A stretch of DNA of 63,934 bases, filler included, from Collodictyon triciliatum (Eukaryota): NCBI GenBank assembly GCA_043381765.1. It is 5 parts of 5 records of this genome, joined end to end, with 100 filler letters (N's around TTAATTAATTAA, not from the genome) between each part and the next. Parts side by side here need not be neighbours in the genome. Positions count along the whole stretch, not along the records: positions 29,388 to 43,952 come from JBHJMP010001800.1; 4 more parts are not named here. One strand, given 5' to 3'. The notes under the pieces are model-generated. The model was given only the letters and a program-made list of their open reading frames with translations, did no database searches and was not told where the DNA came from. This document shows positions 2,827 to 58,783 of the stretch, one piece after another. Every line of letters starts with the position of its first letter. Within the stretch, counting starts at the first letter, position 1. The position numbers were made by a program, and so were the translations under genes.

Positions 2827-2924
<98 letters not shown>

Positions 2925-8661: not shown

Positions 8662-8739
<78 letters not shown>

Positions 8740-11700
8740 AAAAAGAGGAACACATTACTGAAAATAGCTCATTCCACCTTTTTGGATCTAGCTTTGCCAA
8801 TTTTTCATTAATTGAGGTAAAAAACATCGTATGGAGAGGAAGAACATTTTCAAAAGATTTATAATGCATAGACACTTGCTTCACAATGTCTATAATTTTT
8901 TGAGAGTCAAGGAATAATTTCACTATTTTTTCCAAGATTGAGTGGATGTCCTTAGAACGAAAGTCCTTGTAAATGGCTGCGCAACCATCAAAAAATAAAG
9001 AATAATCTGCGCAAAGAATCTCGTACTCATTTCTGTAAGAGCCTATCATGAAATCGTCTATAAATCGTGTATATCCAGTAAAAACTCTGGACGGGAAAAG
9101 AGCATCTAACCAAGATGATATCGTAATCCATGTATAAATGCCTTGGTTTCCAAGACAATACCGAATGATAGAGTCGCAGACGATTGAGGAGTCCGACTTT
9201 AGAATTTTGTGAATCCATTCATGAAATATCGGGACATGACCAAGTTTTTGAAATATCTGAGATATGATCTCGACAGAAAGCTTACTTTGATTCAATTTGA
9301 TTATATTTTTCTTTACAAGAGTAAGATGGTCAGGACGTTGAGAACGAATAAGAACTGAGCAGAGTCCTTCTATGATATCATCGATAATATATTGCACTCG
9401 CTGGTCGATCAATTGATCATCTTCCAGACTCGTGTTTGGATCGGGCGATGCAGTTATCGAAGATGATAATGATACACCAGGTTTTATAGCCCCAGCAGAT
9501 TTATCCGATTCACGATGAGGATTCAAAATAGGCGTTTGTATCAATGTAAGAGATGCTATCGTGCGAGATGATACTAAAAAGGGGATTTCGTTGTTTCTTA
9601 ATAATAATTTACAGAACATCAAGCATTTGAACATGGATTTTTTTTTTTAGATTTTTTAGATTTTTTTAAGAGCAAACCCAAAAAAAAAAAAAGATAATAT
9701 TTCCGAAAGACTGAAATTTTACCATTGATGTTCACAAGAGCTGCATATAAGAAGCCGATGGACAACGGCATGCTGATGAAATCAACAAGATCAGGTGATA
9801 TGAATGCTTTTTGAGCACTTTGGTGGATATCATTAAGGGTTTGAGGAGATCTTGTGATCATTTTCATAGGGTCCATCAGGATTTTTTGGCGTAAGGTAAT
9901 GAGCCTATCATGGAGTAGTTTATTGATCATTTTATTGAATGCAAGTATGGGAGGTACGATGTTTGAGTCGCATGCGTAGACAAAATCCTTAAGGATTACT
10001 AGAAGACTGGCACAGACTATTTCAAATGATGTTGAGCTGGGTTTGGTGTTTGGGAAAGTTGTGATATGTTCACAGATACTACAAAATGCGTTTACAAGAC
10101 TTGATATATGGCTCGTCTCTATAAATCTTGATACAGGATTTTCTGTGGCTGCATCACAGATTATGCGTATCAGAGTGTAATAGATATTTTGAGGATCAGA
10201 AATTTTTGAAATATCTGCAAAGTCATAGAGTATACTCGTAAGGTCATGTCTTGAATATGGTATGTTGCAAGATTTCATATCACCAATAAACATTTCAAAA
10301 GCATTATGGGGTTGATCAACGTGCCCCTTGGTGTGTGTGATGTACGGATCGCGTAATGTTAAAAAAATGGACCTTGCAAGACTTGAAAAACAAAAATCAG
10401 TCATATGTTGTGACCCAGTTGCTGTAAATGATGACACATCGTTTTCGTGTAGTGCATGAGCCACAAATATTTGTCTAGGGTGTATTTGTATTGTTTTGCA
10501 TGCGATGCATTCACCCGTTTGCTTAGAGTAAAACAAGCATGAAATGTAGTTAATGTTTTGCTCCTCGTGCTCAAGGATATCCAAAGCCAGATGATATACA
10601 TGGGGTTGCTGCAAGTCGGGCACTGGTTGTATTGGGCTGTTAAAGAAGTTTAAAGAAAGAAGCGTCCCGCACAGAAATGGTGAATATAGATGGGCTATTT
10701 TGGGTGCTATGTAAGTCAGTAGTTTGATGGACCTGGACTTTACCAAATTTGTCATAGATCTCTGCTGCTCGGCATTGTGGAATATGTGTGATCTTGACAT
10801 AATTTCTCTAAAGTGTTGGAAATCGAGGTTCCTCTGTAGGATCCCGTATATCGCTTCTGCTGAGAATGCAGGAGTCCCTTGAACTGGGTTGATGTCGGAA
10901 TGAAGATGAAAGGGAACGTGTGTGGATGTGCTAAGAACCGAATGATTATCAAAGTATCGGCCTGTCGTACTGCTACCCAGAGGACGTCTAAAACTGTCAG
11001 AAACATCATCGACTACGATAGTGGTATTTGCCAGAGATTGTACAGCTTGATTGGTAGGCTACATTCGTTTAGTTGAAACATGAATTTAATATTCGAATAA
11101 AAAAATCACGCTTTCTACGTATCATTTATGATCTGAAGTGATATTCATATCAAAAAAATGATCTAGTAAATGTATCTTACTCGGTTATATGGTATGGATA
11201 AGATATACAAAAACATAAAGATTTAAAATACATTCAACTAAGTGCATACCGAGTTTGAACTCATATTGCTCGAGTTTACATGCTGTATCGCGACAGAGTT
11301 TGGTGCTCCATATTGTGTAGTGTTAACATGAGGCCCCGTCCATGAAATTGTCGTTTGATTTAGAGGTACTAGCATAGAAATTTTTTTTGTTAATATTAAG
11401 ATGAATGACAACAATGTACTATGATTGAAAAGCCCTTATTTGTAAATGAAAGTCTATGGGATATTTTATAAATTTTGTAAAACAAAAAGGGGAGATAGAA
11501 TAGGTATATCAACCACTTTTTTGAGATGAACCATATTTGTTTGCGTGAGAGGTGCGTTCAAATACATATTTGATTATTCAACCGTGCTCTTTTAATCAAA
11601 AAAGAACCAATCAGCCCCCAAAAAAAAAAAACTTACTTGGGTAGAGAGAGCCGCATAGATTAGCAAGAAGGTGTTGCTCTAAGGCAATGGCAGGATTATT

Positions 11701-11967: not shown

Positions 11968-12965
11968 TTACCGCAAACTGAGGAAGCGGTTTGATCAGAT
12001 CAACACAGCTCAAGAGGGAAAACTTGGAAGGGCCAAAGAACTCAACGCGGATGCTTGCCCTGCTCTCTGCCTCCTGATTCTTTGGTGCTTCTGCGGATCT
12101 CTCTGGTAAGCTGTTGTGCGGCGAGAGTTGCGGTTAGTGAGGGCGNNNNNNNNNNNNNNNNNNNNNNNNNNNNNNNNNNNNNNNNNNNNNNNNNNNNNNN
12201 NNNNNNNNNNNNNNNNNNNNNNNNNNNNNNNNNNNNNNNNNNNNNNNGAAAAGGGAGAAAAAAAAAAAAAAAAAAAGAAAAAAAAGGAAAGAAAGGGAAA
12301 AAAAAAAAAAAAAAAAAAAGAGGGAGAGAGGGAGAAAAAAACATAAGAAAACAGGAATCGGACGCGCTGGAAATGATAACACAAGTCGAGGAAATATCCT
12401 GTTCATATTCATATGTTTCATGGTAGGGAAGGCTCATCTTCTCGCCTCTCCTTAGCACACAAAATGCCAGCGAAGCCAAGCTGCTCTTGGGGAAGGTCGC
12501 TTAAAGCACTGTGTCTGTGTGACAAGGCTTGTCGACGCTTGATAGGAGCGGCTATTGAGGCTGGCGGTCTATGAACCTCATCGTCCCTGGTGGATCTCTG
12601 AATGACGCATAGTGGCGAGCAGTCAGCCAGTGGTTTTGTTGCGTCATTTTCAATACTATGTGTTACAAATTATATTATCAAACAATATTTGGTAATTAGA
12701 GACACAAATAAAATTACAAAAGGACTTTAAATACGTAAGATAGTATAATTTCCAGAGTTGACTATAGCATTTTTCTGCTTCTGTTCTGCTTTGATTATTT
12801 CTCCTCCGTTTTGCCTTTTTTTTTTTTTTAATAAGGCTTTGTTAAAGGTATTTCGATTGGGTTTAACAGAGGTTTTTTTTTATTTATCAGTTTTTCTTCT
12901 TGGGGATTCTATTATAGTTTAGTCACTGAGTTGAACCGGCAAAGGAGTGCAAATAATCGGCCCCC

Positions 12966-14601: not shown

Positions 14602-14865
14602 NNNNNNNNNNNNNNNNNNNNNNNNNNNNNNNNNNNNNNNNNNNNTTAATTAATTAANNNNNNNNNNNNNNNNNNNNNNNNNNNNNNNNNNNNNNNNNNN
14701 NAAACGAAACAAAACAAAACAAAACAAAACGAAACAAAACGAAACAAAACGAAACAAAACAAAACAAAACAAAACAAAACAAAACAAAACAAAACAAAAC
14801 AAAACAAAACGAAACAAAACGAAACAAAACAAAGTAAAATAAAATAAAATAAAAATTAGAATGAA

Positions 14866-23165: not shown

Positions 23166-25707
23166 CGATTCCTGGCAACAAACGCACTATCTATTGATTT
23201 TCATGGTTTTTTTTTCATCAAAGCTATCAAACACGAAACTGTTTAGTTTTCCAAGCGGTTGACTTTGCGCAAGAAGGCAGGAGCAAGGGAGAAAACAAGA
23301 ACACAAACAAGGTCACGGACTTATTGACAGGTAAAAGCAGCATAAATCAAGTCTGCTATATGCTATCTGGATAATGTGGTCATTCTCTGCCGAAACCCAG
23401 GCGCGGTGGAATNNNNNNNNNNNNNNNNNNNNNNNNNNNNNNNNNNNNNNNNNNNNNNNNNNNNNNNNNNNNNNNNNNNNNNNNNNNNNNNNNNNNNNNN
23501 NNNNNNNNNNNNNNNNNNNNNNNNNNNNNNNNNNNNNNNNNNNNNNNNNNNNNNNNNNNNNNNNNNNNNNNNNNNNNNNNNNNNNNNNNNNNNNNNNNNN
23601 NNNNNNNNNNNNNNNNNNNNNNNNNNNNNNNNNNNNNNNNNNNNNNNNNNNNNNNNNNNNNNNNNNNNNNNNNNNNNNNNNNNNNNNNNNNNNNNNNNNN
23701 NNNNNNNNNNNNNNNNNNNNNNNNNNNNNNNNNNNNNNNNNNNNNNNNNNNNNNNNNNNNNNNNNNNNNNNNNNNNNNNNNNNNNNNNNNNNNNNNNNNN
23801 NNNNNNNNNNNNNNNNNNNNNNNNNNNNNNNNNNNNNNNNNNNNNNNNNNNNNNNNNNNNNNNNNNNNNNNNNNNNNNNNNNNNNNNNNNNNNNNNNNNN
23901 NNNNNNNNNNNNNNNNNNNNNNNNNNNNNNNNNNNNNNNNNNNNNNNNNNNNNNNNNNNTTTTGTTTTTGTGCGCTATTGCGCCATTACATGGTTTTTGC
24001 TTGATTGACCCTTTTGTCCAAATGAAGCGTATATAATCATTTGGAACGAAAAAACAAAATGACCAAATTACAAATATTTCTTCTTTAGTTACATTTCATG
24101 GCATTATACATACTACAAACCTAATTTGGACATTACCACGTAATGTTTTAATTAATTTTTTTTTTTTAAAAGTTGGGAGAGATTTCACGCACAGTCACAC
24201 ACACCCTTTTCTCCTCCCAATAGTTTTTTCTGCCTACAAGGCGAGCTCAGGGGTGTCCCTTGACTGTGGTAGAGGTGATTGCACAGGTTTGATCAGAGTC
24301 ACAATGTGAATGCTTATGGTTTTTTCAGGTTATCTGCGCTCACTTTGCTCTTTTTTAAAAAAAAATTGCTCTGAGACGCGTTGGATAGTATATGCCAAAC
24401 CTATTTTGGTTTTGTTTTTCGTTGTTTTTTTTAAAAAAAAAAAAACTTTGAGTGTTCTACTTTCTATTTTTTCAGTCTCTTCTTCAACACAGGATGTACC
24501 CAGTGATAAAGAACGTAGAAAAAAAGTTAAAGAAGGAAAGCTACTCAAGTTACGAGAAGTGGAATGAAACGGATCGGCGAGGTTTTAGAACATATCTTCC
24601 AACTGATTGATCGGCCTTAACCAGCGAGCCACCGATCAACCGATCTCATCAAAGTTAAAAAAATTGATTTTGTACAATGGATTGAATTGGATTTTGACCA
24701 GGTCGCAAGAAGCCTCGCTACTTTTATACAATACCAGCCCCATCAGACATTTGACGCAGTCGCTAAATCACAAGAGTATCACATAATTCGCAGATGAAAA
24801 ATCGTCGAAACCAAATATGAAAATACTCCATGAATGAACTACGAGGCATGATTATTACATGACGCATCGAAACATAATCCAAAAAAAAAAAAACAATTTA
24901 AATTCCTAATTAAGGAGAAAGTAAAATGTATAATTGGAACTGCAATCGTCGACCTTTTGTCGAATGATTTTTGATTCACTTACATATATTCTCATTTGTC
25001 CAGTATGATGTAAAAAAAAAAAAAAAAAAAAANNNNNNNNNNNNNNNNNNNNNNNNNNNNNNNNNNNNNNNNNNNNNNNNNNNNNNNNNNNNNNNNNNNN
25101 NNNNNNNNNNNNNNNNNNNNNNNNNNNNNNNNNNAAAAAAAAAAAAAAACATGCCCACCCAAATACACACTAATGTAATGAGCCTCGATCAATCTTATAA
25201 GACACTTCAATATTTGTGAGAAAGTACCACTGACAAATCCGAGTAAACAAAACTGTCTCTGGTCAAGCGTGATAATAATCCGGGCAAACCATTTATATGC
25301 AAAAGTCTATAGTGTAACTAAAGTAAATTAAAAACTTTTTAATTCAGACTTACATAAATGATTGCCATGGCTTTAAATCTGCATATCTTAGTTTCATTTC
25401 AAAGACTTCTGAATAGATACAATCTAAAATAGAAATGTGTTATTTTAAAAGATCTGTTATTAGTTCTTTAAAAAATAATAAAAAAATATAATAATTAAAT
25501 ATAATGAACTGAGAAGTGCATCAGTAAACACATTCAAATAATATTAAATACAAACAATACAGTTGGTTGTTGGTTGACTTATGAAATTTATGGACAAACA
25601 TGTAATGTAATATAGCTTTTTTACATAAAAAAATAATCAGTGGATTAGTATTGGGCTTTATTGAAACATAACTTGTATGTCAAATTTTGCATTATAGATA
25701 TTGAATC

Positions 25708-28096
25708 ATGGAAAAAAGCGGGTTCATCATGGTACGAATTCAAATTCTATGTGATAGTCTTTCCGAAAACAACTCAAAGATTGCTTTACTTATAGATATA
25801 TTTCTTTACTAAGACAATCATAAATGTTGAAGGAATCAGATCTCTACAACGAAGATGGAAATTTCTCGATATCAATTAACTCTACCGAGAGTTCCAGTAA
25901 ATGTGATGGAGAGCCGATTGGCGAGCCTGTACACCAAAACACCAGTAAAATATCAAAATATTAAAAAAAATTGAATGATGACAATTTTATACATAATTTT
26001 TTCAAAAATAAATTATATATCAACTATTTCTTGCTTCTTGTTTCTAAGAAAAATACATAGATCGTGACTTTGCACACCCTCAGCATGTAGAATCGACTGT
26101 AATAGCAAACAAGGTAAGAAAATCATCATTTATTATATATTTTTGCTAAAGTATATGTTTCTACAGGAATTGGGGTTTGATAATGTCAGGACGCATGACC
26201 AGAATGACGCACCGAAGCCGAAGATGATAAATACGCGAACGAAAATGGCACAAACCTTACCAGAAGATCATATTACTGACATCGAGAGGGAATGGTATCA
26301 TATAAGTAACTAGTCGAATCGCGTAAATGTCTCCTCACTAAAACTGCCACTACTTGTAGTATGCCCATATTGACCAGTGATAGATCTCGATATCTGCGTA
26401 TTAGAAATTTTATCATCGAAAAATGGATATCGAACCCTTTTGTATTTATTTCAAGAACGGATTGCTTTGATGAACTTAAGGTATATCGACATTATTACCT
26501 TTTCTCTTTTTTTTCCTATTTATTCACCATAATCGTATAATTTCAATGAGATAATATTCACGAATATGTTTTTTAAATAGACAAGTCATAATTCTATTAA
26601 CAAGCTTCATAAATTCCTTACGAATAAAGGTATCAAACAGTTTTTAATTTTAGCAGTTTTTTTTTTTGTACATATGATTAATGCTTATTTTTTCCTTTAT
26701 TCGATTCAAGGAAAGAAAGGGGGTTAAGATATTTTTTTTACAGTCTGACAGAATTGTTCCTGATTTATGAAATATAAAAAAAATCACTTTAAAGAATGGC
26801 ATATGGAGTAGTGCTTCTTGTAATCGAAAAAAAATATTAGGTTACATTAATTGTGGATTGGATAATAAAGGGAGTAAAAAAGGTTAGATTGATATAAAAA
26901 TGAACTTAGTAACCAAAAATGAGACGAAAGGTATCATATTAATATAAAGTCACTTTTAGTAGAGAAGAAAAAACTGCTTAAGGTCACAACAAGGTTAAAC
27001 AAATAGCGAATCTATTGAAATATATGACATATAGAACATAAAAATTTATTTGATTCTCTTGGAAATGAGCACGTATCCTGATATTCATTTGAATTTTAAA
27101 TGACTAGGTCGATTGTTTTTAGTGAGAGTCGGTGTCGGGGTAAGCCCAAGAGTGTCGTATTGATCATTTGTAATTCCTTTTTAGCTCAGTAATACTGAAT
27201 ATTACATAAATTTGGGGTATTGGTAAAAAAAAAATTTTTATTGAAACAGACCACGTGAGACCATTATGTCAGTTCTTTGACCCCAAGATGAAGGCTGCTG
27301 AAGACTTCTGTCAAGTATATATGTGTAGAAGCGATCTTTGTGAGTTCTGTGCTAATGGGAAGGTGGTAAGATATCACTTAACTTTATAAATACCCGATAA
27401 GTTTGAAAATAAAGATGGTCATGCATGGCTAGAAAGACAAGCTCTGATGTTATTGTTTTATTTATAGAAGGAAGTAGAAGGTGTGAAATCCTGTTCAAGT
27501 GAAGGACCAGGCGACATGTAAGTAAAAGAATGTAGTTACCTTTTTATCTCACTTATCGATTAATGTTGCAATAGACACCCGTTGAGTGGATTCTGGAATG
27601 TGATGAAGTCAAGGGATAAAGCAAATCCAAAGTAAGGTTTCATGCATCAGAAATCGTATCTACAGTACTAACCTTTGGAATTCAATACAGACCGAGCGAG
27701 GAAGCATCGATTCGGTATATATCTGCTGACCACACTATAACAGAGAAAAGGTTTGGTCTCACATATTCGACGTTATGCTTTGATCTGATTTTTTTCACCA
27801 ATCGGAAAATTTACCAACCTGATGTGTTTCCAACTTCCCTGCTGAGATATGCTTATAAATTTCCAGGACGGATTCTTCAAGTAGCAAAAGGAAGCGTTAT
27901 ATACCCTGTCGTTCAGTGCGTAGAATACAACAGGAGCAAAAATAAATTTGTACTCAGGAATATATATATATTTCAGTCATAGTTGCTCTTCTGAAAAGAA
28001 AGAGTGATGACTCGAGGAACTTATAAATAAGAATGTGTCCATGTTACGATTTTCCAGGACAAAACAAATATGGGCTCTATTCGTCTAGGGGATTAA
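25708..28096 (+). CDS. SWIRM-domain protein with a Cys-rich C-terminal region
   Basis: Spliced exons 26168-26882 give LPEDHITDIERECMP..YLRIRNFIIEKWISNP..INKLHKFLTNKGYINCG, which fits the SWIRM consensus. Later exons end GSIRLGD*. The start is uncertain (25708, 25824 or further upstream). Confidence 0.75.
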
Positions 28097-28780
28097 CATC
28101 ATTTTTTATAAAAAAAAATTATTGGATATATAGAGTGGTTGTTTAGTTGCTAGGTGTTGCTGCGATTAAAATTAATTGATACTAAACTGTTCGCTAATTT
28201 GAACATTGCGTTAGGAGCTGAAACCTTGTGAAATCATTCGTGAGACCAAATGACGCCACATGATAATTTGCTCGACTAGAAAATAGTTTAGTTTTCTTGG
28301 ATAACAAAACAAATTTTTACATCTGAGAAAAAAAATTGTGGCTGTGGTTTGATCTTGTTTTTTGTTTTAGTTTTTGGAATTTTGAATTGGAATTTTGAAT
28401 TGGAATTGGAATTGGAATTGGAATTGGAATTGAATTTTAAATTGAATAACAATAATTGAAATGTGGAAAATATAATCATTACCTAATTTAGTGGTATAGA
28501 ATCCAAATATATGCTTCACATATATTTATAAATGTAATTGCATATTAATTTCTTTGTAAGTGTGTATTGATTGTCACAGAACGTTTCTAGCTTAAGCTGT
28601 ATTACGCCACTGCGGCGTATCGGCCATATGTAACTCATCTGCTCCTCTCACGCAGGGCCACCTTGTTTGTCTTTCGGTTTGAAGCACTCGTTCGTCGGTT
28701 CAGTTTATGACTCTGTTTTCGAGACGGGGCGACAATTCTGACGTGCGGCCTTATTCTGCGGGCCAGACTTTTGCAGCTGC

Positions 28781-29110
28781 ATGCTTCCTGGTTGGAGCCA
28801 GGTGGAGCCGGCCTCCTCTTCAGGAGACAAGAACACAGGCCTGTTGGAAAAGGTTGCAGCAGCTTCCACCAGCCAGCCGTACACACCTTCACGGCCGTCG
28901 GATTATCCGTCGGCCTCGTCTCTGCGTCCTGCTTCTGTCGGCGCGATTCTGGACTCATGTATGGAGCTGAACGATCCGAATCTCAGCCAAGAGATATTTC
29001 AGGGAAGGAATCGTTCTCACTCGGCCAGTTCGCCGCGGTTACCGTTTGCCGGGTATTGGCCGATCGGCATCTTCCGTCGGGCAGACATACCCAGCCAGCA
29101 GAAGAAGCAA
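28781..29110 (+). CDS. Hypothetical protein, first exon; remainder presumably in the gap
   Basis: GC-rich Ser/Pro-rich ORF ending at a GTGAGA donor near 29111; no recognisable motif. Confidence 0.35.
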
Positions 29111-29752
29111 GTGAGAAAAGAAAAACAAAACATGTTTGTGTACAGGTTTGTTTGTCCTCATATACAGATAATCTTTCTCTCGCTAGACATATGCAAAAAT
29201 CTGTTGTAACTATTCGTGATCGATATGTACATACTGTTGCTGTTTAATCATATGTTTGCTGGTTGATAGTAATTTTCCGGCTCCATANNNNNNNNNNNNN
29301 NNNNNNNNNNNNNNNNNNNNNNNNNNNNNNNTTAATTAATTAANNNNNNNNNNNNNNNNNNNNNNNNNNNNNNNNNNNNNNNNNNNNACAAAACAAAACA
29401 AAACAAAACAAAACAAAACAAAACAAAACAAAACAAAACAAAACAAAACAAAACAAAACAAAACAAAACAAAACAAAACAAAACAAAAGAAGCCAAGTAA
29501 AGAAAAAAGATTATAATCAATTGTGAGCGCCAACGTGTATATCCGTACTTGTTGAATTCGGGGCATGTCATCACATTTCTTGGATATACTATCGATTCCA
29601 TATTTGTAATGCATAAAAGGTATGATTAAACTATTCGATCAAAAACCAGGGACGAGATCAGCGCCGATCACGCAACACAACAAAACCGCTCAAACAAACC
29701 CAGCAGGACAGAAGACGACGGGAAAAAAAAACGAAAAAGAAAACTTGGACGA

Positions 29753-30152
29753 ATGCCCATCGGTCTGACTGATCTCCTTGTCATCGGTGTTGTCGGAGCC
29801 GTCTTTATTGGTACGCCCACGTCAAACACACTTAAATGAAAAAAAGAAAAAGGTTGAAAAAAATAAAGAAAAAAAAAAAGAAAAAGCTGCGTATGGAAAG
29901 ATTCGGACCGTGCATGTCTCCACGTCTATTGAGGCGCGAATACAAAACATGTTTACAGGGCCTCGACGTCTGCTGCCTCGGCTGAAAGAGAGTGCAAAGT
30001 ATGTCCGAGAAGCCTTCGATTCCGCCAAGGCTGAGTCGGAGGTGATTACACAGGCAGCATCGAAAATGCAGAACAGCCAAAAGGAAGGCCCCGGCGCAAC
30101 CCCGACTCCGCCAGCAGCACCGCAGCAAACAAACCCGCCAAAGGGCGATTGA
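29753..30152 (+). CDS. TatA/TatB-like twin-arginine translocase subunit, 83 aa, two exons (29753-29810, 29959-30152)
   Basis: A phase-1 GT-AG intron joins the exons to give MPIGLTDLLVIGVVGAVFIG-PRRLLPRLKESAKYVREAFDSAKAESEV...PPKGD*. This is an N-terminal TM helix, a GP hinge, an amphipathic helix and a disordered tail. Confidence 0.7.
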
Positions 30153-30326
30153 GTCCGCCTCAGCACAAAGAAACCAACATGTGAATGAACACAGAAAAGC
30201 ACAACACAGCCGATCGTGCGAGCCGAGAGAAGCCACATGTCCACAAGGAAAAGAGAGGGTTGCAAGGAGTTTATGCGAGCGTGGGAAGTGGCCAAGGTGA
30301 ATTGTGCCCGTGCTGCGGCTCTGTAT

Positions 30327-33291
30327 TTATGTTGCCTTGCAATACGTCTTGTGTTCTTTCCATTCTTTCTTCTGGCACTCCTGGTTGCAGTACCACACGC
30401 CTTTGCAGCGCGAGCATCGGAACTGCGCCCCTTTGGCTCGGCACTTCGAGCAGTAGTAGGTTGGGTTTGGAGCGTAGTGGACCGAGGGCAGGATTTGGCG
30501 GTCGAGTAGCTGCACATCGTCAGACGGCGGAGGATACTGAAGCGCGTGTGGTCGCACTAGTTTTGGTTTTGGTTTTGGGTTTGGTTTCGGTTTTTGTTGT
30601 TGGGTTATGCACGAAAGCTTATGATGTGGGTATGTGCCTGTGTTTTGGAGTGCGGCTTACGATTTGTCACGTAGCCTTGCAGGTACGATAAAGCCCCTTG
30701 AGAGTTTGACCATATTGTGATGTAGTTTCTCGCATACACAACACCCTGGCGTTTTCATGAGTCATCATCGTTATTTTCCACTTTTATCTACTCTATGTAT
30801 GTATGTATGTATGTATGTATGTATGTATGTATGTATGTATGTATGTATGTATGTATGTATGTATGTATGTATGTATGTATGTATGTATGTATGTATGTAT
30901 GTATATGCGAAAGAGAGAAAAGTGATACTTGCCTCAGCCTCGCTTCGGATTGCATAACGCTCTGGTGGCGGCGGCATTGTTTTCTCACCGAGTAAAAAAG
31001 GTAGGATTTGGGGATTGAAATCACCCTATAGTATTAGGAGGCGTTAGATGATTAGGTGGCTTGGCCCAGTTTAATATCTTTTGTGAACGCAATAAAGGCA
31101 ATTAGGGATTGCTCTAGTTCATACGGCTTTTCCGATCAAATCGAAGAATTCCATCGCCTAAAAAAAAGGATGCCTTTGATTATCGTATTTTAAAGGTAGA
31201 TTCAAGTCTCAATAGATTTTTTTCCGAAGAAATAGCTTCAGCATGCTAATAAAAGTATTTAAGAAAAAAAAGAAGCAGAAAAGGCACATCCATTCAATTC
31301 CATCCAAAAACTAAAGCAGGAAACAAACCTTGACCATGTCATTGTCTTGTTGGAAGGCACATAAAGAGACAGAGTAAAAGTAATCAGCTACGGGGATGTG
31401 GTTTGATGTTTGTCTTAGAATACCACGGAGTTCAGCCGGTTTATCGCAAGTAAAGTACAGGTAGACAAGGTTGACTCTGGATAGCAGTATGTCTTCTTTG
31501 TCTGTATTATACACAAACCTGGTTGAGTGGGTTTATTTAGAAAGAGAAAACAGAGACATTCACCACGCTGGAGTGTTTATACTCTGGATTCAAGTAAAGG
31601 AAAACATACAGAAGCCGTGCATCAGCTTCTTTGAAGCTTCCACTCTTTGAATAAACATATCCAAGCCTCTGCTTTATCACAAGGTCGGACAATCGAAGTG
31701 CATCCGCTGCGCGCATATTTAATAATATGATTTTAGCTAGAGAATTTATGATTTTGTAGATGGGTTGGTGAAGGACAAGTAGAATATTTGAAATTCACTT
31801 ACAAATAACAACAGCCTCGGGAAAAGATGAAGTAAAGGACTGGACTTTTCCAATAAGCTCATCAGACATTTTGCTGGCGATTTCTAAGTACTCAGCGGCC
31901 TGAGATAGTGATGCTGCGCTTTCTTCTGCAAGTAAAAGGTATGATTCCGGCACCTCACTCTGTGAAAGTACATCGAGCATACGAAAATGATTATGGGTTT
32001 GAGTTTTTATCACAAAAAGTATATACATGCAAATATCTGTAATATGTTTTATTTTAAGCGGTGAATGGGATATCGAGAATATGTCTACCAGAAGATGTGC
32101 AGCTTCAACTCGAGCAGCGACGTAATGGCGATCGTAGACATCGTAATACTGGACCTGCTTTCTGTAGTTTAATCATGATGAGAACGGTGATTACATATTG
32201 GGAGGAAACAAAAAAAAAGCGAAATAGTTGTGTTCATCAATAGATTTTTATCCATTTCCAAGAACAGCTGCGTAATACTAAGCATGCGGATGTTACAAAG
32301 TGTTTTGCAGTATCTAAAAGAAAATTTCATGTAGATTACGTTAAGATAGAAAAAATATCCTCTAGCTCAGGAGGCATCACAGTATCCTCAAATTTACTCT
32401 TCCATGCAGCAAAACCCTGAATGAATAGAATGATGAACCCATTCAGTAAAATTCATTTTGGATGGTGGGATTTGCGTGCTATGACGTTTATAGTAATAGA
32501 GACATTTATAATGCAATAACCAGGTTCTATGCTCAAAGACACGATCAAAATATAGCGAAGGCAGTAAAAAAAAAAAAAAGATAGAGACTTCTGACTCATG
32601 CCGTATGTTGAGGAGACGAATACTTTGCGAAACTTTTGCGCTATATTTGGGAACAGATATCCCTGCTGCAGAAGCGGGCGCATCAAGTCCTCGTCTGATT
32701 TCTCATCCTGCCGAAGTCTCCATTGTTCAAACTGTGGGCCAATACACTTTGAGAAAAAAAAAGCCAACCACAAGACTTGCCAATTGATTCCCAAAATACA
32801 TGAATATAGATATATATAAATTATAAAAGCAAGGTAGGGCGTGTAAAGTGCCTTAGCCAGCACTATGAGAAAAGGGATAACCGAAAGAACAACTCGTCAA
32901 CGTCCAATTAGCCTGGCCTTTGCGGTAATTATGCGGAAGGGTCTCCTCGAGAAGCAGAAGAGAGTAAATGAAAGGAAGAAAAAAAATACTTCAGCACTGT
33001 CAGAAGAATCCTGGCGCTCCTGCTCTTCACGCCGAAATCGTTGCGGACTTATGATCCTGGAGAGGAGTGGGAGCATTTCGGCCATTCGAAGCAAGCGCAG
33101 CGGATTGACAACAACCTCGGACGACATCGCTGAGGAAGGGCTGGGGATCTCTTCTTCGCCTCTGGTTTGGACTTCAGGAAAAGAAAAGAAGAAGAAAAAG
33201 AAAAAAGACGCATGAATTGAGTGATGAGCATTCATGTTGCAGGCTTGTGTTGCCTAGCACCTTGATAGCCTCCTTCGGGCCTTGCATCCAT
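30327..33291 (-). CDS. Helical-repeat (TPR/ST7-like) protein with a C-terminal MYND zinc finger
   Basis: The last exon [31 protein letters not shown] is a zf-MYND. Upstream exons give [37 protein letters not shown] and TPR-like helices. Start [10 protein letters not shown] is tentative. Confidence 0.75.
30794..30904. repeat. (ATGT)n intronic microsatellite
   Basis: Seen directly; lies inside the GC-AG intron of the MYND gene. Confidence 0.95.
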
Positions 33292-33663
33292 CTGGCAACC
33301 TGCGGATTGGATGCTGTGCTGCTGGCTGTGTATTTGTTGATTTTTGTTCAATTTTTTGGAGAAGCAGATTCTAGTTGCTTTTTATCTAATCATGGAAATT
33401 ATTAATTTAGTTGTAATAATAATTAATGAATGGGTTGATATGATATATAATGTAATATTCTGAACAAGTAGATATATATACATTGTTAATTCTAGGGAAA
33501 TTGTGTATTTTTTTCCCGGAACTTTGCCATTCTCGCCTTCCGAACATTTAAACCACACCCAATCTCGTTCTTCGACGCGCCATAAGGCAACTCAAAGCCG
33601 CGCAGAAACCAAGGCCGGTGATCGTCCGTCCAAGCCCGAGGCACCTGCTGCGGAAGAAGCGGC

Positions 33664-33763
33664 ACACACAAACACACAAACACACAAACACACAAACACA
33701 CAAACACACAAACACACAAACACACAAACACACAAACACACAAACACACAAACACACAAACAC
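33664..33763. repeat. (ACACAAAC/ACACACAAAC)n repeat just upstream of the eIF4G start codon
   Basis: Seen directly. Confidence 0.9.
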
Positions 33764-33796
33764 GCGATGCTGATTGAGCCACCATAGTAGAGCACG

Positions 33797-40672
<6,876 letters not shown>

Positions 40673-41128
40673 GAAACAATTGACTTTTGATTCCTTCGTT
40701 TGAGCCCCTTTCGTTCCTGTTTTTCTTTTTCATTCTTCTCCAGAGTATGTTAAATCTAATTTTTCGTGATTTTTTTTTAATTCCATAATTAAGCAATTCC
40801 AGTTTAGCTGCGTGTTGGTAGCAACATTAGCGCGCATTTCCTGACCAGTTTTGACTTTTGCAAATAGGGATGCAAAGACGTCTTCTGAAATTAAAGAAAG
40901 GAATCTACGAAATCTACAGCCAGAATGCCAACCCGCGGTCAACTCTCTATGGAAAATCAGACAATCAAAGATATAAAAGAAAAAGATTCTACGGATGAGA
41001 GAGAGAGTATGGTCGGACACAGTAAGTGGCCAGATGGTTATAATCGGACTCTGATTTTCGCGCGCAGGTATTAGCGTGCAGAAATACGCTTGAATCGAAT
41101 AGATGTTGGTGCAGTTTTCATTCTCTTT

Positions 41129-41735
41129 CTATTCTTTTGGAACATCGAGATTTCTTAACTGGTGGTGTGAAGCTGACATTCGATAGGGGCAAGGAAGGGC
41201 CTTCAGCCAAGTAATCTTCTGCTTGAAATACCATGTTGCACAAATTGATAATTTTGATAAGCTGCGTGGCGATTGTGAATGAAGAAACGAAGAGCAAAAG
41301 GAGAAGAAAACATTCAACGAATCACAGTTGATGCATTGCAATTTCCCCAGACTGATATGATTGGTGAGAGAGAAAGAGAGAAATGGTGTACCATCTTTGA
41401 ACTCCCTGCAGAAACTGCTGTGCGAAGCAGCCGGGGACTACAGAATGGTATACGAGACGCAAAGAATAGAAAGTACGCGGAAGCGAGCACGTGTAAAGAG
41501 AACGACGCGACATGAATACGCACACGGGAATGACCGACCACGCAAGCATTTCAGAAGTCGACATTTCCAGGGAAGTGGGGCTGAAAAAGAGAGATAGAAG
41601 AAACGGAAGCAGGAGAGAAAAAAAAATAAAACATTCTTTCGGTTCATAAAAATGAATCATCTGGTTATTCGAGAGTTCATCAGACAGGAAGGAAGGGTTA
41701 TTGAGGAGGGGTTTCCCTCCGCCCCGGGGTTGCAT
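41129..41735 (-). CDS. Possible small spliced hypothetical gene
   Basis: Four segments with plausible GT-AG junctions can be joined in an open frame (MQPRGGGK...LDVPKE*). A second frame is also open and no motif is recognisable. Confidence 0.25.
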
Positions 41736-41762
41736 TCTATCGCCAACTACTAACCCACGAGA

Positions 41763-41860
41763 AAACAAACAAACAAACAAACAAACAAACAAACAAACAA
41801 ACAAACAAACAAACAAACAAACAAACAAACAAACAAACAAACAAACAAACAAACAAACAA
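41763..41860. repeat. (AAAC)n microsatellite
   Basis: Seen directly. Others: (TTTTG)n about 43105-43220, (AAAG)n about 43860-43951, (TTTTTC)n about 44053-44155, (ATTT)n about 45563-45661, (AAAAC)n about 14702-14832 and 29388-29487. Confidence 0.95.
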
Positions 41861-41943
41861 GCAAGCAAGCAAACAAACCGAGTGAGCCGGTCATTGTCAT
41901 CACAGGTCAATAAGAAAATGCTGTGGCAGACCATGTCTCTTTA

Positions 41944-43730
41944 TCAGAGGGTGTAGCGAGACAGGAAAGACCACATCTGTCGGCTGGCGTCAAGGTCGTT
42001 GTTTCCGCCGGGATAGCCAGGCGAACCAGGCCAGTAGAAATGCGACTCGCCCTCTGAAAAGCAGGCGGTCACATTGGCTTGGATTCCTCCACCCTGAAAG
42101 GAAAAAGGTTGTGGATAGAGAATAGGTGATTTAGTGATTCTTTAAAGTTTCTGTTTGGTGTAGCATTTCGATGCAGGTTAGAAGCAGATGGCGGGCGCAG
42201 ATTGATTTGCCGATATCTTTGGGTGAATGCAAACCTGGATTGGGCAGCCCTCTGTGCGAGCCGTGCATGTTGTGACTCCGCCCTGGAAAGACACTGTTCC
42301 AGTGCTTTGTCTGCAGCCGGTCAGGTAGAGCCAGTCGCTAATGATTGATTCAATTATTTAACTGCATGAATCGAAAGATTTCAACGGATGATGAGATTGA
42401 TTGAGTTCTAAATTTGAATAATATTGAAAGAAACCCAAGAGAGGGAGCATATGTAAACATACTCGATAACTTTGATAGATAAATCAGTTGGACAGAATGG
42501 GTCGTTGGTTCCAACGAAGAACAAAAGCGGCATCGGACGGGCTGGACGGCAGTTGGAAAGAATCTTAACCGTTTTATATATATAGGGGAGAAGAGGATGC
42601 GATTCATTAGTTTGAAAACTTTGTGCGAATGGATACGCTTGTTATAAGTTCAATGAGACAAAATATTAGCTCTGCATTCTTGAGTGCTTAGACAAGACTG
42701 GTGATCAATAGTTGAAGTTACAATAGACTTGAATGAATGGATACAGTTGACAAGGTCGCGGAAAATGTATATTTCTAGTGACTTTATGTTTGAGATCCAC
42801 AGTTTAACGTCCCAAACCTGTGATTCAAAAGGGTCATATCCAGCCATTGTGGCAAAAGCGGCAAATAAGTCTGCAGCGTCGCAAGCAAGGCGGAAACTCA
42901 TTGCGGCACCGTTAGAAAATCCTTGATATTGGATTCCAATATGTATGACATGGAAAAAAAAATGAATTTCATATTTCCTCAATAATCTTAACTATAATAA
43001 ATAGGGGATGGTTGGTCGCAAATAAAAGGAGAAAATTATGTAAATGGATCAAGGTAAAACAAAAAAATGGTAAATTTTATTGCTAGACTTTGCATCCATC
43101 CCTTTTTGTTTTGTTTTGTTTTGTTTTGTTTTGTTTTGTTTTGTTTTGTTTTGTTTTGTTTTGTTTTGTTTTGTTTTGTTTTGTTTTGTTTTGTTTTGTT
43201 TTGTTTTGTTTTGTTTTGTTTAGGTTAGGGTAAATGAAACAAACCGACTACGTAAATACGACTTGAATCAACAAGATATTTACGAGAAATGTCAGCTACA
43301 ACAGAGCGGATGAATCCGACATCGTCAACATCTGTACATTATCAAAAGCGTGTGCATGCACACGAATGAACATTTGCATATAATATGAAGCAATTTTCAA
43401 ATGGTTGTTATATATCCTATTTTATTTTTATGGCACATTCATTTTTCTTTCCTTTAATAAAAATAAAATCTAATCCATTCTGGTTTTTATTTCAAAAATG
43501 TGTTGTGGGACACAAACTCGGGTATGCAGGAGCACAGCAGCTGGGACCAGCGTTCCATGAGCGACCATAACCCCGAGGATGCCTTTTGTGCAATGTCGGT
43601 ATCAATCAATGAATATATTGTTGCAATTGATCATAAATCAATCGAGAATCAAATACACTGGTTAAAGAAGCTCTCACACAATCAGAAACTTGTTTTCTTC
43701 TGCAACCAACTCCAAGTGGGAAAAAGCCAT
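41944..43730 (-). CDS. LpqC/LpqP-like (PHB depolymerase-type) alpha/beta-hydrolase esterase, 5' part lost in the gap
   Basis: Spliced: VAEENKFLIVHPRGYGRSWNAGPSCC..VDDVGFIRSVV..VDSSRIYVVGFSNGAAMSFRLAC..GTNDP..GESHFYWPG..DASRQMWSFL. The Ser-Asp-His triad is intact. Confidence 0.85.
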
Positions 43731-43860
43731 CTATATCGTATGAAATGCAAAAATGAAATGAACCGATCCAACCAGGAAAAAAAAAATAACAGGAGACGAA
43801 TGATAAAAAAAAAAAATGATAATAATGAATGACCAAGGAACGAGAAATGAAAGGAATGAA

Positions 43861-43952
<92 letters not shown>

Positions 43953-44197
43953 NNNNNNNNNNNNNNNNNNNNNNNNNNNNNNNNNNNNNNNNNNNNTTAA
44001 TTAATTAANNNNNNNNNNNNNNNNNNNNNNNNNNNNNNNNNNNNNNNNNNNNTTTTTTCTTTTTCTTTTTCTTTTTCTTTTTCTTTTTCTTTTTCTTTTT
44101 CTTTTTCTTTTTCTTTTTCTTTTTCTTTTTCTTTTTCTTTTTCTTTTTCTTTTTCGTTCTCTTTATAATATCATATGACATATGTAACTCGCTCAAG

Positions 44198-44739: not shown

Positions 44740-45220
44740 CCTACACAACCTCAGTACTGAAGATGTGCTTGTGGATGCTGATTGCCCGCCAGTGTTCCTT
44801 CGTCTTTTGGAGGCAATTGCAATCGGTCGTATAAGAAGAAAAAAAAACTCCCTTTTTTTTTTCCTTCTTAGATACCACAATAAAAGCCAGAGTCTGCATG
44901 CAAAACTTTTTATTCATATGTCTATCCCTTCATGTATCATGATTTCATGAATTGATTAAGAGTCAGATGTCATCGTCCCAATAGCCTCTTTCTATGATTG
45001 ACACAAGAACAAAGGATGATTTCAAAACTCTGATTTTGACAGATTGGCTCAAATCCTCTGCCAGTCGGGTTGCGCAAGTCAACATCCTTTTTCTTCTTTT
45101 TTACGTGGTAATAACGAGTCGTCTGCTGGGCAAGAGCGTTGATACTTTACCGATGCGGACAACTGTTTCTTATTCTAGGAGCTTTGGTGCACAGATAAGA
45201 GACTCGGGAAAAGCGTGGCG

Positions 45221-45564
45221 ATGGGGATCTTTGATGGAGTTGTATTCTGCCTTGTCGGCATCGACGGAAAGGAGCGCCGCGACTTGGTCGATCTTGTCTG
45301 CAAAAACGGAGGAAAGATTTCATACCTTGTCACTGATCAGGTAGGTGAAGAAAAGTATATTCCCAGACCATGGCACTTTCCCGTTCATTTCTTCCTGTTG
45401 GCCGTTTTTCGCGTCTCATGCGCCTTATCTTCGTTCGTTCTAGCTTGTATTTGGGTTGTGAATCATACTGAAAATCATAGCATATTTCACTTTGAACTTA
45501 CTTGCCTATATTTCCTTATGTTTCTCTTTTATCTTTGCCTTTTTACCTTATATCGTTTTTTAAT

Positions 45565-45659
<95 letters not shown>

Positions 45660-48600
45660 TTCTTCCTCTAATTTTGTGCAAGATGGTGAAGATGTTGGCT
45701 ACCTTATATTGTATTATACATTCTAATGGATCTTAATCGACATCTCAGGTAAACTACATCGTTACGTTAGAGTCCCAAATCCTGCCTCAGCCGACCTATT
45801 CTATCAATCTCGCCCTGAGGAAAGGGCTGCGGCTTGTTGCAGCTTCCTTTATATATGAAAGTACGACAAGCAAAACGCTTATGGACCACCGCTCATTTAC
45901 TCTTGGAGATTCCTCTCAAGATACACCGCAGGTTCATACAGTCTTGGATGCAATTATAGAACCCTCTATTAGAGCCAAAGAACAGCCCGTTTTCGCACCT
46001 GAGAACACATTCACGGATGAGAGATTCCCTCCAATCTGCGACATTCCTCAAGCACCTCAGGAAACATCCCACAGCAAACATAACGACACAGTAAAATTTT
46101 CGTTACCTTTTTTTTTTTTTTTTGATGGTCCCCAGAAACATATCGATACCTCTCTTAATAATGAGTGTATTAAACTGATTAAGAAAATAATCAAGGATGG
46201 CGACGAGGATGACTTCAACATCGCAAATATTGACTTTAGTGGCAATCATCCTTCAAAAATACCGGGGCATGTATCGTTGCATCATGTCCGCCTTGCTAAG
46301 GCAAAAAGAGCAACGTTCATTCCAACAAAACTGCATGAGTCTTTTTTTGCACCGGATCCTCAAACTTTCCTGGGCAGTCCAACCAGCCCTGTAGACGATA
46401 TTTTAAGAAGCTCTCTGAATGCAATACCTTCAGAGAAAACCGTAAATTTCGATTATTCAATCCACAGTCGCCCCTCTTGCTTTTTCGTTTATTGCGACCC
46501 TACAGAAATAAGCTATTGCCCGATTATATGTATGAATAACTGAGTATTCTCTTCGTTCATACTGTTGACATATCACCCAATTTTTAGTATACGATAATGA
46601 ACGTAGCTGCCATGCCTGAATATCTATCATATTCTATCGATGAAATACGATACATGCATTACCTCTGGCTGGAAGGCAAGAAATACATCGCAAACCAAGG
46701 CGGAGATGCACCAGTGGACACGACGCCTAGCTCCAACAACGAAGATTGTTTCTCACTGGCGCCCACTTACAATCAATGTTATTCATCTGATACATCTGAT
46801 GTTGCGCCAGAAGCGAAGGAGACAGAGAAGGAATTCGTGGGGGATGTAAAAGCGAGCAAATCAGACCCAAATTACATCGAATCTAGCTATTTTCATCAAG
46901 AGATGTCTATGCTATGGGGGACTGGTCATGGCTTCCAGACTGGCACCGGCCGAAGTCCATCCACATATATTCAGTATCAAAACTGCAAAGTAACGCCTAC
47001 AGACCAACAAAGTAAGAGAATATTTTTACCCACATTCTAAATCATTTTAAGGGAGGCAATCCATTTTTCATTTCATAAATTCGTGTTTGATGTGCGCTTA
47101 GGTATTCTGAAGAACGTTAGCGTATTCAGTGTTGGAAGATTACACTCAGCACTCGTTACAAAAGAAGGAATGCTTTTCACCTGTGGTCATGGGTCCCTTT
47201 TCTCTTACTTTTTTTTTTTACCTTTTTTTATATTTATTTTTATAGACTAAATCAGCTTAAAATTCTGGCTTTATATATGTTTGTGATTTGATTTTTTCTC
47301 TTTGAAATATCAGTCGAAATTGCCAGCATTTTTTTATGAATATTTGTTTGACACAAGAGTATTCAAATGTTGTTATGTAGTAAGTATGGTCGGCTTGGGA
47401 ATAATAATACGAAAAACACGTCATTTTTCACTCGCATAGGACACTCTTTATCTGATAAGTAACTAAGCAATATATTTATGTGTTTATTAAATTTGATAAA
47501 ATCATTTTCACATTTTTTTATTTAATCTTTTTATTTTTCTTTTCGTAGTACGCAATTTATCTGAATGAAGAAACCACTTAGTTTCGTATTGAATATATTA
47601 CTCGAAAATATGATCATTGATTAACCAAAGTTAATGTCACACAATGAAAATAATATTTGTTAAAATACTATCGAAAATCGCCAAAAGAATCGTTGTGACG
47701 GTTTCGTGTGGTGGAGCCCACACTGTTGCCCTGTGCAATGGTGGTCAGGCATATTCTTTTGGAAAAAATTCATATGGACAACTTGGTCTAGGAGACATGT
47801 GAATACCTTTCTCCCTTTTCTTTTCTTTTCTTTTCTTTTCTTTTCTTTTCTTTTCTTTTCTTTTCTTTTCTTTTCTTTTCTTTTCTTTTCTTTTCTTTTC
47901 TTTTCTTTTCTTTTCTTTTTCATCCTTTTTCATCCTTTTTCATCCTTTTTCATCCTTTTTCATCCTTTTTCATCCTTTTTCATCCTTTTTCATCCTTTTT
48001 CATCGACTAGTGTCTTTCCCATAATCGATATCATGATTTAAGCAATCAAGATAGGACAAGTAACTATAGTGTTATGGCTCAATTTATGTATATAGGGAGC
48101 CAAGATATTCGCCTGAATTGGTCAGACTGCCGAAAAGTACGTCCTTATGTGCCGTTGCCTGTGGCTCAAACTTTACTTTGGCTTTGGACACGGTGGGGCA
48201 AGCATGGGGTTGGGGAAACAACGAACATGGTCAAAGCGGTAAACTAAAAAGAGGGAACCAGGTAAACACCTTGTTCTTAAAGAGAAATGGCAATAGATGA
48301 ATGAAATATGACTTGTGGAGGCTAGTGCCGCACAAGAGATAAAAATAGTGAAAAACATGGTTACAGAAATCATTAATATATATAGGTAATATCCACCCCG
48401 ACCAACTTCATGTCGGTTCCAAAAAACCGCTTTGTTGGCGTTGCGTGTGGAGACGAACACGCACTGCTTCTAACAGCCAAAGGGCAAGTGTATAGCAAGG
48501 GAAATGATATATTCGGACAATTGGGAATTGGAACTCAGGTGCTCAATTTTTTAAAAGAAAAAGGTGTTCTTTCATAAGATTTGCTTAAAATGTAACTTTC

Positions 48601-54492: not shown

Positions 54493-55815
54493 ATGACAGA
54501 CTCCACACAACTGCATTTGCAGTCATGCTTTGAGGAAGACGTCAAAGACATGTTCGACACAGCAGACTTTGTTATTATCCTGACTCAACTACTCGTCCAG
54601 ATGGCAAAACGAGGCGACCAGGTTTATAACTTGCCCACTTTCGACACACAGACCCCCTCATTCACTAACATTCTCTGATAGAAATCAACCCGCCCCCGCA
54701 CAATGTCCCGCTTCCACTCGAACCGCCCACCAACTATTTCCGTGAAGCGTTACTTGCAGCGGTTTGTTGCAATCACTCGCACATCTTTATGCTGAACGCC
54801 TCTTTGCACATGGCACAATTCTTGCACTCGCGCTCACTAACCCATCTCCATCTTGCATCATCGCCCACTCAACCACAGCATCTTCAAGTACGCCCCGTGC
54901 TCGCAGTCGTGTTTCATTCTTTGTCTCATCTATCTGGAGAGAGCCAGCAAGATCGACCCCGCATTCTATGTGTGCTCCAAGAGCCTGCACCGCCTCCTCA
55001 TCACCAGGTGTGATACTAACCCCACAATACCGCCTTCCCTCGTCCAGCCGCATATTCCCTCACTGACACCCGCATCCATATCCACGCGCAGCATCATGGT
55101 GTCCACAAAGTTCTACGACGACGGATACTACAAAAACCAGCACTACGCACAAGTGGGCGGCCTGACGCTAGCCGAGATGAACGATCTGGAGCGGGACTTT
55201 CTCTTCCGCCTGCAGTTCAGCCTGAGCGTGGAGCCAGCGCTCTTCCGCGAGTACAAGAGGGAACTCGGCCGCCTGATTGTAGCCTTCCACGACGCAACAC
55301 TCGCGTCCCTGCAACCGACCTCTCCGGCCGCCTCCCCGCAGACGCACCGACGCCTTCTATGTGACCCGATATCTGTGTCGTCTGTGGGCGCCTCTGCCTC
55401 TGCCTCTGCCTCGTCAGGTGTGGACGAGACCGACTACCCATCCTCGTCCTCGTGTTCGTCTTCTTACTCGTCCACGTCGTCGCTCGACGCACTGCTGCCT
55501 GTCCCGGAGGCCCAGCCGCTCGGCCTGAGTCTGACCTGGGGCCACTTGTACACCCCGCCCAGAAACTCAGCCGCCTGCGTCGACAACCTGTGGGCCTTCG
55601 ACGGCACCGCCGCCGCCGCCTCTGCGGGATGGCCTGCCCCGTCCTCCACCGCATATCATAATCATCTGCCCCTTCACACCCTTACGAAGGATGACTGGCC
55701 CCACTACTCTCATCCGTATCAGCAACAGCATCAGCAACTGTATCCTTACTTCACGGCTGCTCCGCAACAGAAAAACATCTGGGCCTACTCATCCGATTCC
55801 CTCTCTGGCTTCTGA
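54493..55815 (+). CDS. PHO80/PCL-like (cyclin U/P) cyclin, 4 exons, low-complexity tail
   Basis: FHSNRPPTISVKRYLQRIFKYAPCSQSCFILCLIYLER..LHRLLITSIMVSTKFYDDGYYKNQHYAQVGG..EMNDLERDFL. Introns carry CACTAAC/TACTAAC-type branch points. Confidence 0.93.
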
Positions 55816-58609: not shown

Positions 58610-58783
58610 NNNNNNNNNNNNNNNNNNNNNNNNNNNNNNNNNNNNNNNNNNNNTTAATTAATTAANNNNNNNNNNNNNNNNNNNNNNNNNNNNNNNNNNN
58701 NNNNNNNNNGAGAATAAATTCCTCACCTCTATTTTTTTCTTATCTCCTTTTTTCCTTTTTTTTTTTTTTCTTTCTTTTTTTCA

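Follow-up and report, generated by a model that had tools for sequence, protein, structure and literature searches.

An 83-residue protein, encoded by a small gene that is interrupted by one intron, is in all likelihood, judging from its profile scores, a member of the TatA/B/E family and of the TatB type. The gene lies in the window, which is the whole stretch of DNA that was analysed and measures 63,934 nucleotides. It is transcribed and spliced, the splicing being read from one cDNA contig. The favoured reading, to which a probability of about 0.55 is given, is that the product serves as the nucleus-encoded TatB of a mitochondrial TatBC translocase and works there with TatC. Its location, its TatC partner, its substrate and its import route are what we infer. 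The mitochondrial Tat system is a patchily retained bacterial export machine, and its subunit make-up is unclear in most lineages.

The coordinates of the gene and of the features around it are collected in Table 1. The coding sequence, joined by script from these coordinates, is 252 nt long, contains no internal stop and is translated into 83 residues, of which the initial annotation had quoted the first 39. It had also proposed that a phase-1 GT-AG intron splits the codon of the hinge Gly, and this was borne out, as the codon is divided G/GG between 29810 and 29959. The GC content is 0.52 and 0.59 in the two exons, as against 0.37 in the intron. When exon 1 is read on without splicing, a stop is met after nine further codons. 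Exon 1 codes for the N-terminus, an Asp in the column of TatB Glu-8 and a short transmembrane helix. Exon 2 provides the Pro, the basic amphipathic helix and a tail rich in Pro, Gln, Ala and Thr, and its TGA occupies 30150-30152. Upstream of 29753, no in-frame ATG is present back to the stop at 29627-29629, except that of a uORF at 29609-29629 (+). This uORF has six codons, is in frame with the TatB-like coding sequence and ends in TAA; it would be relevant only if the transcript begins further upstream than the cDNA contig.

Table 1. Positions of the TatB-like gene and of the neighbouring features in the window.
Feature	Position	Strand	Basis and remarks
Minimal 5' UTR	29723..29752	+	Stretch of the X1 contig before the ATG; contains no ATG; a contig end and not necessarily the transcript start
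Start codon ATG	29753	+	Window sequence
Exon 1, coding part	29753..29810	+	58 nt, 19 codons and the first base of the hinge Gly codon; sequence, translation, cDNA contig, profile
Intron	29811..29958	+	148 nt, GT..AG, phase 1, A-rich; removed in one X1 cDNA contig
Exon 2, coding part	29959..30152	+	194 nt, from the last two bases of the hinge Gly codon to TGA; sequence, cDNA contigs, helix analysis
Minimal 3' UTR	30153..30206	+	Up to the X1 contig end at 30206; overlaps, in antisense, the convergent zf-MYND transcript at its 3' end
zf-MYND gene, last exon	30327-30656	-	Pfam, E 5.5e-11; convergent with the TatB-like gene
zf-MYND intron	30557-30660	-	Canonical GT..AG; spliced in X1 and X2 contigs
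MIF4G domain exon	38316-38654	+	Pfam
Weak BRCT match	45179-45736	+	Pfam; further along the window
PHO80-type cyclin exon	54841-55815	+	Pfam; further along the window
Clathrin light chain exon	56376-56732	-	Pfam; further along the window
Ribulose-phosphate 3-epimerase exon	61089-61373	+	Pfam; further along the window

The evidence for expression comes from public sequencing runs. A search of these listed 14 runs, 13 of which contain part of 29520-30560, and the best of them are X1 and X2, both small and labelled as RNA by guess only. Small shares of the stretch were also present in three freshwater metatranscriptomes, as well as in freshwater and subsurface metagenome runs (X3-X5 and X9-X13), from which nothing follows about habitat. 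Four runs (X1, X2, X6 and X7) were aligned to the window. In one of the four, X1, a contig of 340 nt aligns to 29723-29809 and to 29958-30206 and skips 148 nt with GT..AG ends; with the cut shifted by +1 base, its junction is exactly 29810/29959. RNA reads had been named in the initial annotation as the place to check this junction, and there it is supported by one contig from one run, with the RNA label of that run being guessed. The contigs of X2 (from 30018), X6 (30014-30164) and X7 (30059-30199) hold parts of exon 2 only and, because the junction is not reached, are neither for nor against splicing. A loose end in X2, which resembles a template-switch oligo, points to cDNA.

The same contigs bear on the start of the protein and on the constraint upon it. 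Only 4 letters remain unaligned at the 5' end of the X1 contig, where no upstream exon is visible, the end of a contig not being the end of a transcript. The earlier claim that a presequence is absent was, thus, upheld as far as the data reach, as the contig begins 30 nt before the ATG and the uORF supplies the only in-frame upstream ATG; an unseen upstream exon may exist. The contigs differ from the window at five sites in exon 2. Four of these are synonymous third positions, and the fifth replaces an Ala of the tail by Thr. This pattern, small as the numbers are, agrees with purifying selection.

The setting of the gene is that of a eukaryotic nucleus. The TatB-like gene shares the gap-free stretch 29388-43952 with a spliced zf-MYND gene, recorded on the minus strand at 30018-30700, and with a MIF4G exon. 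For the zf-MYND intron, the aligner reported that it 'skips 106 with 2 letters between', which is due to a T/C difference beside the junction. The zf-MYND transcript runs antisense into the TatB-like gene and reaches its 3' UTR in one contig (X1 record 2, down to 30187) and its exon 2 in another (X2 record 7, down to 30018). A bacterial contaminant or an assembly artefact might be suspected from the bacterial type of the protein and from the runs of N (scaffold gaps) just upstream. However, the GT..AG intron is removed in the cDNA contig, exons and intron differ in GC, and the spliced zf-MYND gene follows 175 nt downstream with no gap in between, by which this suspicion is effectively refuted. 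The initial annotation had argued against contamination from the intron and the eukaryotic neighbours, and it was right to do so: as a spliced intron and eukaryotic neighbour genes occupy one gap-free stretch, contamination is practically excluded. When the ciliate code was tried on the window, the ORFs were not notably longer, and the standard code was retained. Two ESM Atlas look-ups with neighbouring ORFs returned no more than generic eukaryotic clusters.

The family of the product was assessed with self-built profiles. Their sources were E. coli tatA and tatB with enterobacterial relatives, 80 gammaproteobacterial tatB loci, the best 30 tatA/tatB loci from a search that sampled 121 Pseudomonadota genomes evenly (with the Pfam family in 117 of the 121), and 121 loci of other phyla chosen by the TatA hinge motif. 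Searches seeded with E. coli TatB and TatA gave only enterobacterial sequences, and the diversity was, therefore, drawn from the genome search and the motif scan. The general set, fam1, consists of 181 unique TatA/B domains from 221 hits. Two paired sets, Adiv for TatA and Bdiv for TatB, were taken from 28 adjacent tatA-tatB pairs of Pseudomonadota (loci L085-L115); three loci with one hit only (L086, L097 and L102) and a duplicate of L085 (L084) were left out. The fourth set, GPA, was drawn from cyanobacteria, Bacillota, Acidobacteriota and others; its 130 hits yielded 115 unique domains with the motif, and it is biased by the way it was selected.

It was observed that the spliced product scores 24.0 bits (E 1.2e-9) with the fam1 profile, its residues 3-46 being aligned. 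The 28 diverse TatB of Bdiv gave 24.6 bits (E 8.3e-10), and the 28 paired TatA of Adiv only 5.0 bits (E 9.6e-4). The larger, gamma-heavy sets separated in the same manner, with 28.2 bits (E 6.5e-11) for TatB and 3.9 bits (E 2.1e-3) for TatA. The GPA profile, which represents TatA with a Gly-Pro hinge, reached 9.3 bits (E 4.2e-5), and all sets combined gave 19.3 bits (E 3.2e-8). These scores come from self-built profiles over about 45 residues, and the signal is dominated by the helix and the hinge. In a leave-one-out assignment, all 56 members of Adiv and Bdiv were placed correctly as TatA or TatB. With hhalign, the spliced product matched TatB at 96.0% probability (E 3.8e-9) and TatA at 55%. 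Pairwise comparison with 293 unique TatA/B domains pointed the same way, the best 40 being 38 TatB, 2 GPA domains and no proteobacterial TatA. The initial annotation had called the protein TatA/TatB-like. Of this, the family likeness stands by the self-built profiles and hhalign, and the likeness can be narrowed to TatB, with 24.6 bits as against 5.0 and 9.3.

Several controls were applied to these scores. None of 5,000 whole-sequence shuffles reached 24 bits (maximum 12.9), and neither did any of 5,000 shuffles made within segments (maximum 12.7), while the reversed product sequence scored -3.7 bits. Among the 1,222 ORFs of the window, the unspliced exon-1 ORF tops every profile at 9.5-12.1 bits (9.5 with the TatB profile). 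The exon-2 ORF has 5.4-7.4 bits on two profiles, and the best unrelated ORF 6.0-8.7 bits, depending on the profile. The maximum among 1,298 non-Tat bacterial ORFs was 6.9 bits.

The curated Pfam models were run on the exon products singly, the spliced protein being scored with the self-built profiles. Pfam, including PF02416 with its curated cut-off of 21 bits, found no family in either exon product alone at E up to 10, and hhalign found no match between exon 2 alone and the TatB alignment. In a six-frame search of the E. coli K-12 chromosome at E <= 0.001, PF02416 marked two places, TatA with 55.8 bits and TatE with 45.5 bits, and the place of tatB was absent. This suggests that proteins of the TatB class are recognised less well by the curated model than TatA is.

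All this has to be weighed against mere chance. An unrelated membrane protein, anchored at its N-terminus, could mimic TatB with its helix, its Gly-Pro and a basic stretch; the product is short, neither exon is recognised alone, no homologues of exon 2 were found, and the roughly 24 bits come from a home-made profile that was scored without competition from other families. A look-alike of this sort is, nevertheless, very improbable. The E value is 8e-10 per sequence, 10,000 shuffles, including those that preserve the hydrophobic segment, failed to match it, and 2,520 control ORFs attain at most 8.7 bits. Moreover, the preference for TatB over TatA is specific, and the best pairwise match has 38.8% identity over 49 ungapped residues, which extend well into the amphipathic helix.

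The anatomy of the protein can be followed along its length. Residues 8-21 (14 residues) make up the longest stretch without any D, E, K, R, H, N or Q, which is also the sole long uncharged one; the 13-residue window of highest hydrophobicity likewise begins at residue 8 and has a Kyte-Doolittle mean of 2.83. Directly after the Gly-Pro hinge, from residue 22, the helical hydrophobic moment peaks at 0.62, the range for the 28 TatB being 0.53-0.94. Residues 22-45 contain seven K+R and four D+E. The Pro/Gln-rich tail is disordered.

Among the 28 TatB, the columns M1, G21, P22 and P26 are invariant, and E8 is present in at least 90%. M1, G21 and P22, and with them the Gly-Pro hinge, are kept in the product. 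The Glu-8 column is occupied by Asp, a conservative change by which the charge is retained. The column of the invariant Pro-26 contains Leu, the next position of the product being a Pro. In the TatA alignment, Phe-Gly is an invariant pair, which in the product is interrupted by Ile. The N-terminus of E. coli TatB quoted in the initial annotation was checked and is correct. In the line-up that had been drawn from it, the short helix and the Gly-Pro hinge do align.

With regard to known proteins, the product is nearest to the bacterial TatB of Pseudomonadota, with which it shares the best profile and pairwise matches, the register of the start, and M1, G21 and P22. Unlike these bacterial relatives, it is encoded in a eukaryotic nucleus by a gene with a spliceosomal-type intron. 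Compared with E. coli TatB (171 residues), it is half as long and is missing one residue near the N-terminus. TatA and TatE, along with the plastid and cyanobacterial types of TatA/B that have a Phe-Gly-Pro hinge, resemble it in family architecture and in length (E. coli TatA has 89 residues). It differs from the TatA types in its low scores with proteobacterial TatA and with the 115 Gly-Pro-hinge TatA, and in having the Phe-Gly broken by Ile.

Nuclear TatB genes have been described before. According to the available excerpts of Petru 2018 (PMC6251230), mitochondrial tatC and tatA are always encoded in mtDNA, and mtDNA tatC is joined by a TatB from the nuclear genome in plants (Carrie et al. 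2016, as cited), stramenopiles and cryptists. In the same excerpts, nuclear Tat genes are TatB-type only and never TatA-type, a pattern into which the present product fits. Most Tat-bearing eukaryotes are described there as having mtDNA tatC alone, and 'TatC-only' systems and nuclear TatB without TatA are treated as open questions. The excerpts of Gray 2020 (PMC7050145) add a nuclear TatB with mtDNA tatC for Andalucia and, from unpublished data, for other jakobids. The initial annotation had implied that a nuclear mitochondrial TatB outside plants would be novel. This was overstated, as the excerpts of these two papers report it for stramenopiles and cryptists (PMC6251230) and for jakobids (PMC7050145). 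In open-access full text, no report was found of a nuclear TatB beyond plants, stramenopiles, cryptists and jakobids, nor of a presequence-less TatB of 83 residues.

Compared by description, the product is similar to the nuclear TatB of plants, stramenopiles, cryptists and jakobids in being the product of a nuclear gene, in the acidic residue in the N-terminal part of its helix, in the Gly-Pro hinge and in the amphipathic helix. In contrast to them, again by description, it has only 83 residues (plant mitochondrial TatB is longer than bacterial TatB in the excerpts of Petru 2018, PMC6251230), no visible presequence, and Asp in place of Glu. As for the origin of nuclear TatB, the available part of PMC8662606 regards it as unresolved because the protein is so small.

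If the product is indeed a mitochondrial TatB, its synthesis would take place in the cytosol, and its import would need no cleavable presequence. An internal import signal may be provided by the transmembrane helix together with the basic amphipathic helix. Bcs1-type proteins carry such an internal mitochondrial signal, in which a transmembrane helix is followed by a basic amphipathic helix, and the N-terminal elements of the product have the same order; this is an analogy only, with no homology claimed. The protein would then be placed in the inner membrane, its N-terminus being exposed to the intermembrane space and its basic helix to the matrix. At this site, it could pair with an mtDNA-encoded TatC and receive a twin-arginine substrate, which, by analogy with plants, may be the folded Rieske Fe-S domain. 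In the available parts of PMC8662606 and PMC5855863, the plant TatBC complex is described as moving the folded Rieske domain, and the former also notes that Bcs1 and Tat are not mutually exclusive.

The evidence assembled above bears on the family likeness and not on the partner. A descendant of TatB that has ceased to work with TatC would also have to be considered, be it a relic, a repurposed small membrane protein, or a fairly recent bacterial transfer with a gained intron, in an organism with mitochondria that lack TatC. Two TatB positions do deviate in the product (Asp for Glu-8, and Pro-26 displaced by one residue), no eukaryotic relatives were found with exon 2 as query, and tatC was lost from mtDNA many times according to the excerpts of Petru 2018 (PMC6251230). 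Such a loss of function is, however, unlikely. In the same excerpts, the published TatB-positive eukaryotes all have mtDNA tatC. Further, the gene is expressed with four of its five variant sites synonymous, and the geometry of the hinge and the helix is intact.

A different organelle may be considered as well. The product would be a plastid (thylakoid) Tat subunit if a targeting leader were encoded in an unseen upstream exon. The cDNA contig holds only 30 nt upstream of the ATG, with no in-frame stop there, and runs of N (scaffold gaps) at 29288-29387 lie 370-470 nt upstream of the start; nuclear TatA/B genes for plastids are, in the part of the literature available, common in algae. Against this stands the coincidence of the ATG with the N-terminus of bacterial TatB, the profile alignment beginning from residue 3, as well as the lack of an upstream loose end in the contig beyond just 4 unaligned letters. 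The product also scores 24.6 bits with proteobacterial TatB, versus 9.3 bits for the set with many cyanobacterial TatA/B-type proteins, and no sign of a plastid-bearing organism was seen within the window. A thylakoid role is, on balance, quite improbable. That the product fits proteobacterial TatB better than it fits the cyanobacteria-rich set tilts the balance towards a mitochondrial history over a plastid one, although about 45 informative residues give no proof of it.

Relatives were sought with exon 2 as the query. There were none in 5.8 billion protein clusters, and in JGI metagenome contigs, 595 stretches matched the pattern without a relative among them. Three matches to exon 2 in 1.84 billion protein representatives were rejected as artefacts, being tandem-repeat junk ORFs of 360-1,993 residues with implausible Pfam matches. 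On this basis, the TatB-like gene is taken to be new and unannotated, though of a kind already known, with exon 2, the part searched, lacking a counterpart in either protein collection.

The ease with which such a gene is overlooked is understandable, as the protein has 83 residues, the intron sits at the hinge codon, Pfam recognises neither exon, and no relatives of exon 2 were found in two very large protein collections. One may go further and suppose that the source lineage is among those now scored as 'TatC-only' or Tat-less, and that this short, intron-hidden gene is the missing second subunit, although that is doubtful. If it is true, many 'TatC-only' mitochondria would run TatBC, with a TatB that gene callers overlooked and that is imported free of a presequence by means of its helix and basic amphipathic helix. 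A splice-aware search for the TatB class in 'TatC-only' eukaryotes could alter the picture of which mitochondria have a working Tat. The protein would also offer a compact case for the presequence-free import of an inner-membrane protein. On the other hand, the finding is routine annotation if the host is a stramenopile, a cryptist, a jakobid or a member of the green lineage.

Some other features of the window were recorded. A very large multi-exon gene spans 494-11058 (-); it is AT-rich, with ORF pieces of up to 513 residues, a P-loop-like GAGKT and an Asn run, and a Pfam search gave no match for it. By its language-model features, one of these pieces is similar to the N-terminal region of dynein heavy chain (score 0.96), which is weak evidence. 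Microsatellites, namely (AAAAC)n, (CATA)n, (GTTTTG)n and others, occur at 29391-29490, 30790-30930, 30560-30600, 33650-33780 and 34000-34140, and the (AAAAC)n tract is just upstream of the TatB-like gene. A mir-297 match on the (CATA)n microsatellite, the only Rfam match in 27000-33000, was set aside as sub-threshold (46.8 bits, the threshold being 90). The (GTTTTG)n tract attracted very deep contigs of 31-36 nt in all four aligned runs. Runs of N (scaffold gaps) are present at 12146-12247, 14602-14701, 23413-23959, 25033-25134, 29288-29387, 43953-44052 and 58610-58709. Several of them are pairs of 44-N blocks 12 bases apart, one such pair preceding the start codon of the TatB-like gene by about 370-470 nt. 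The GC content of the window rises from about 0.30-0.38 in its left half to 0.41-0.53 near 52-62 kb.
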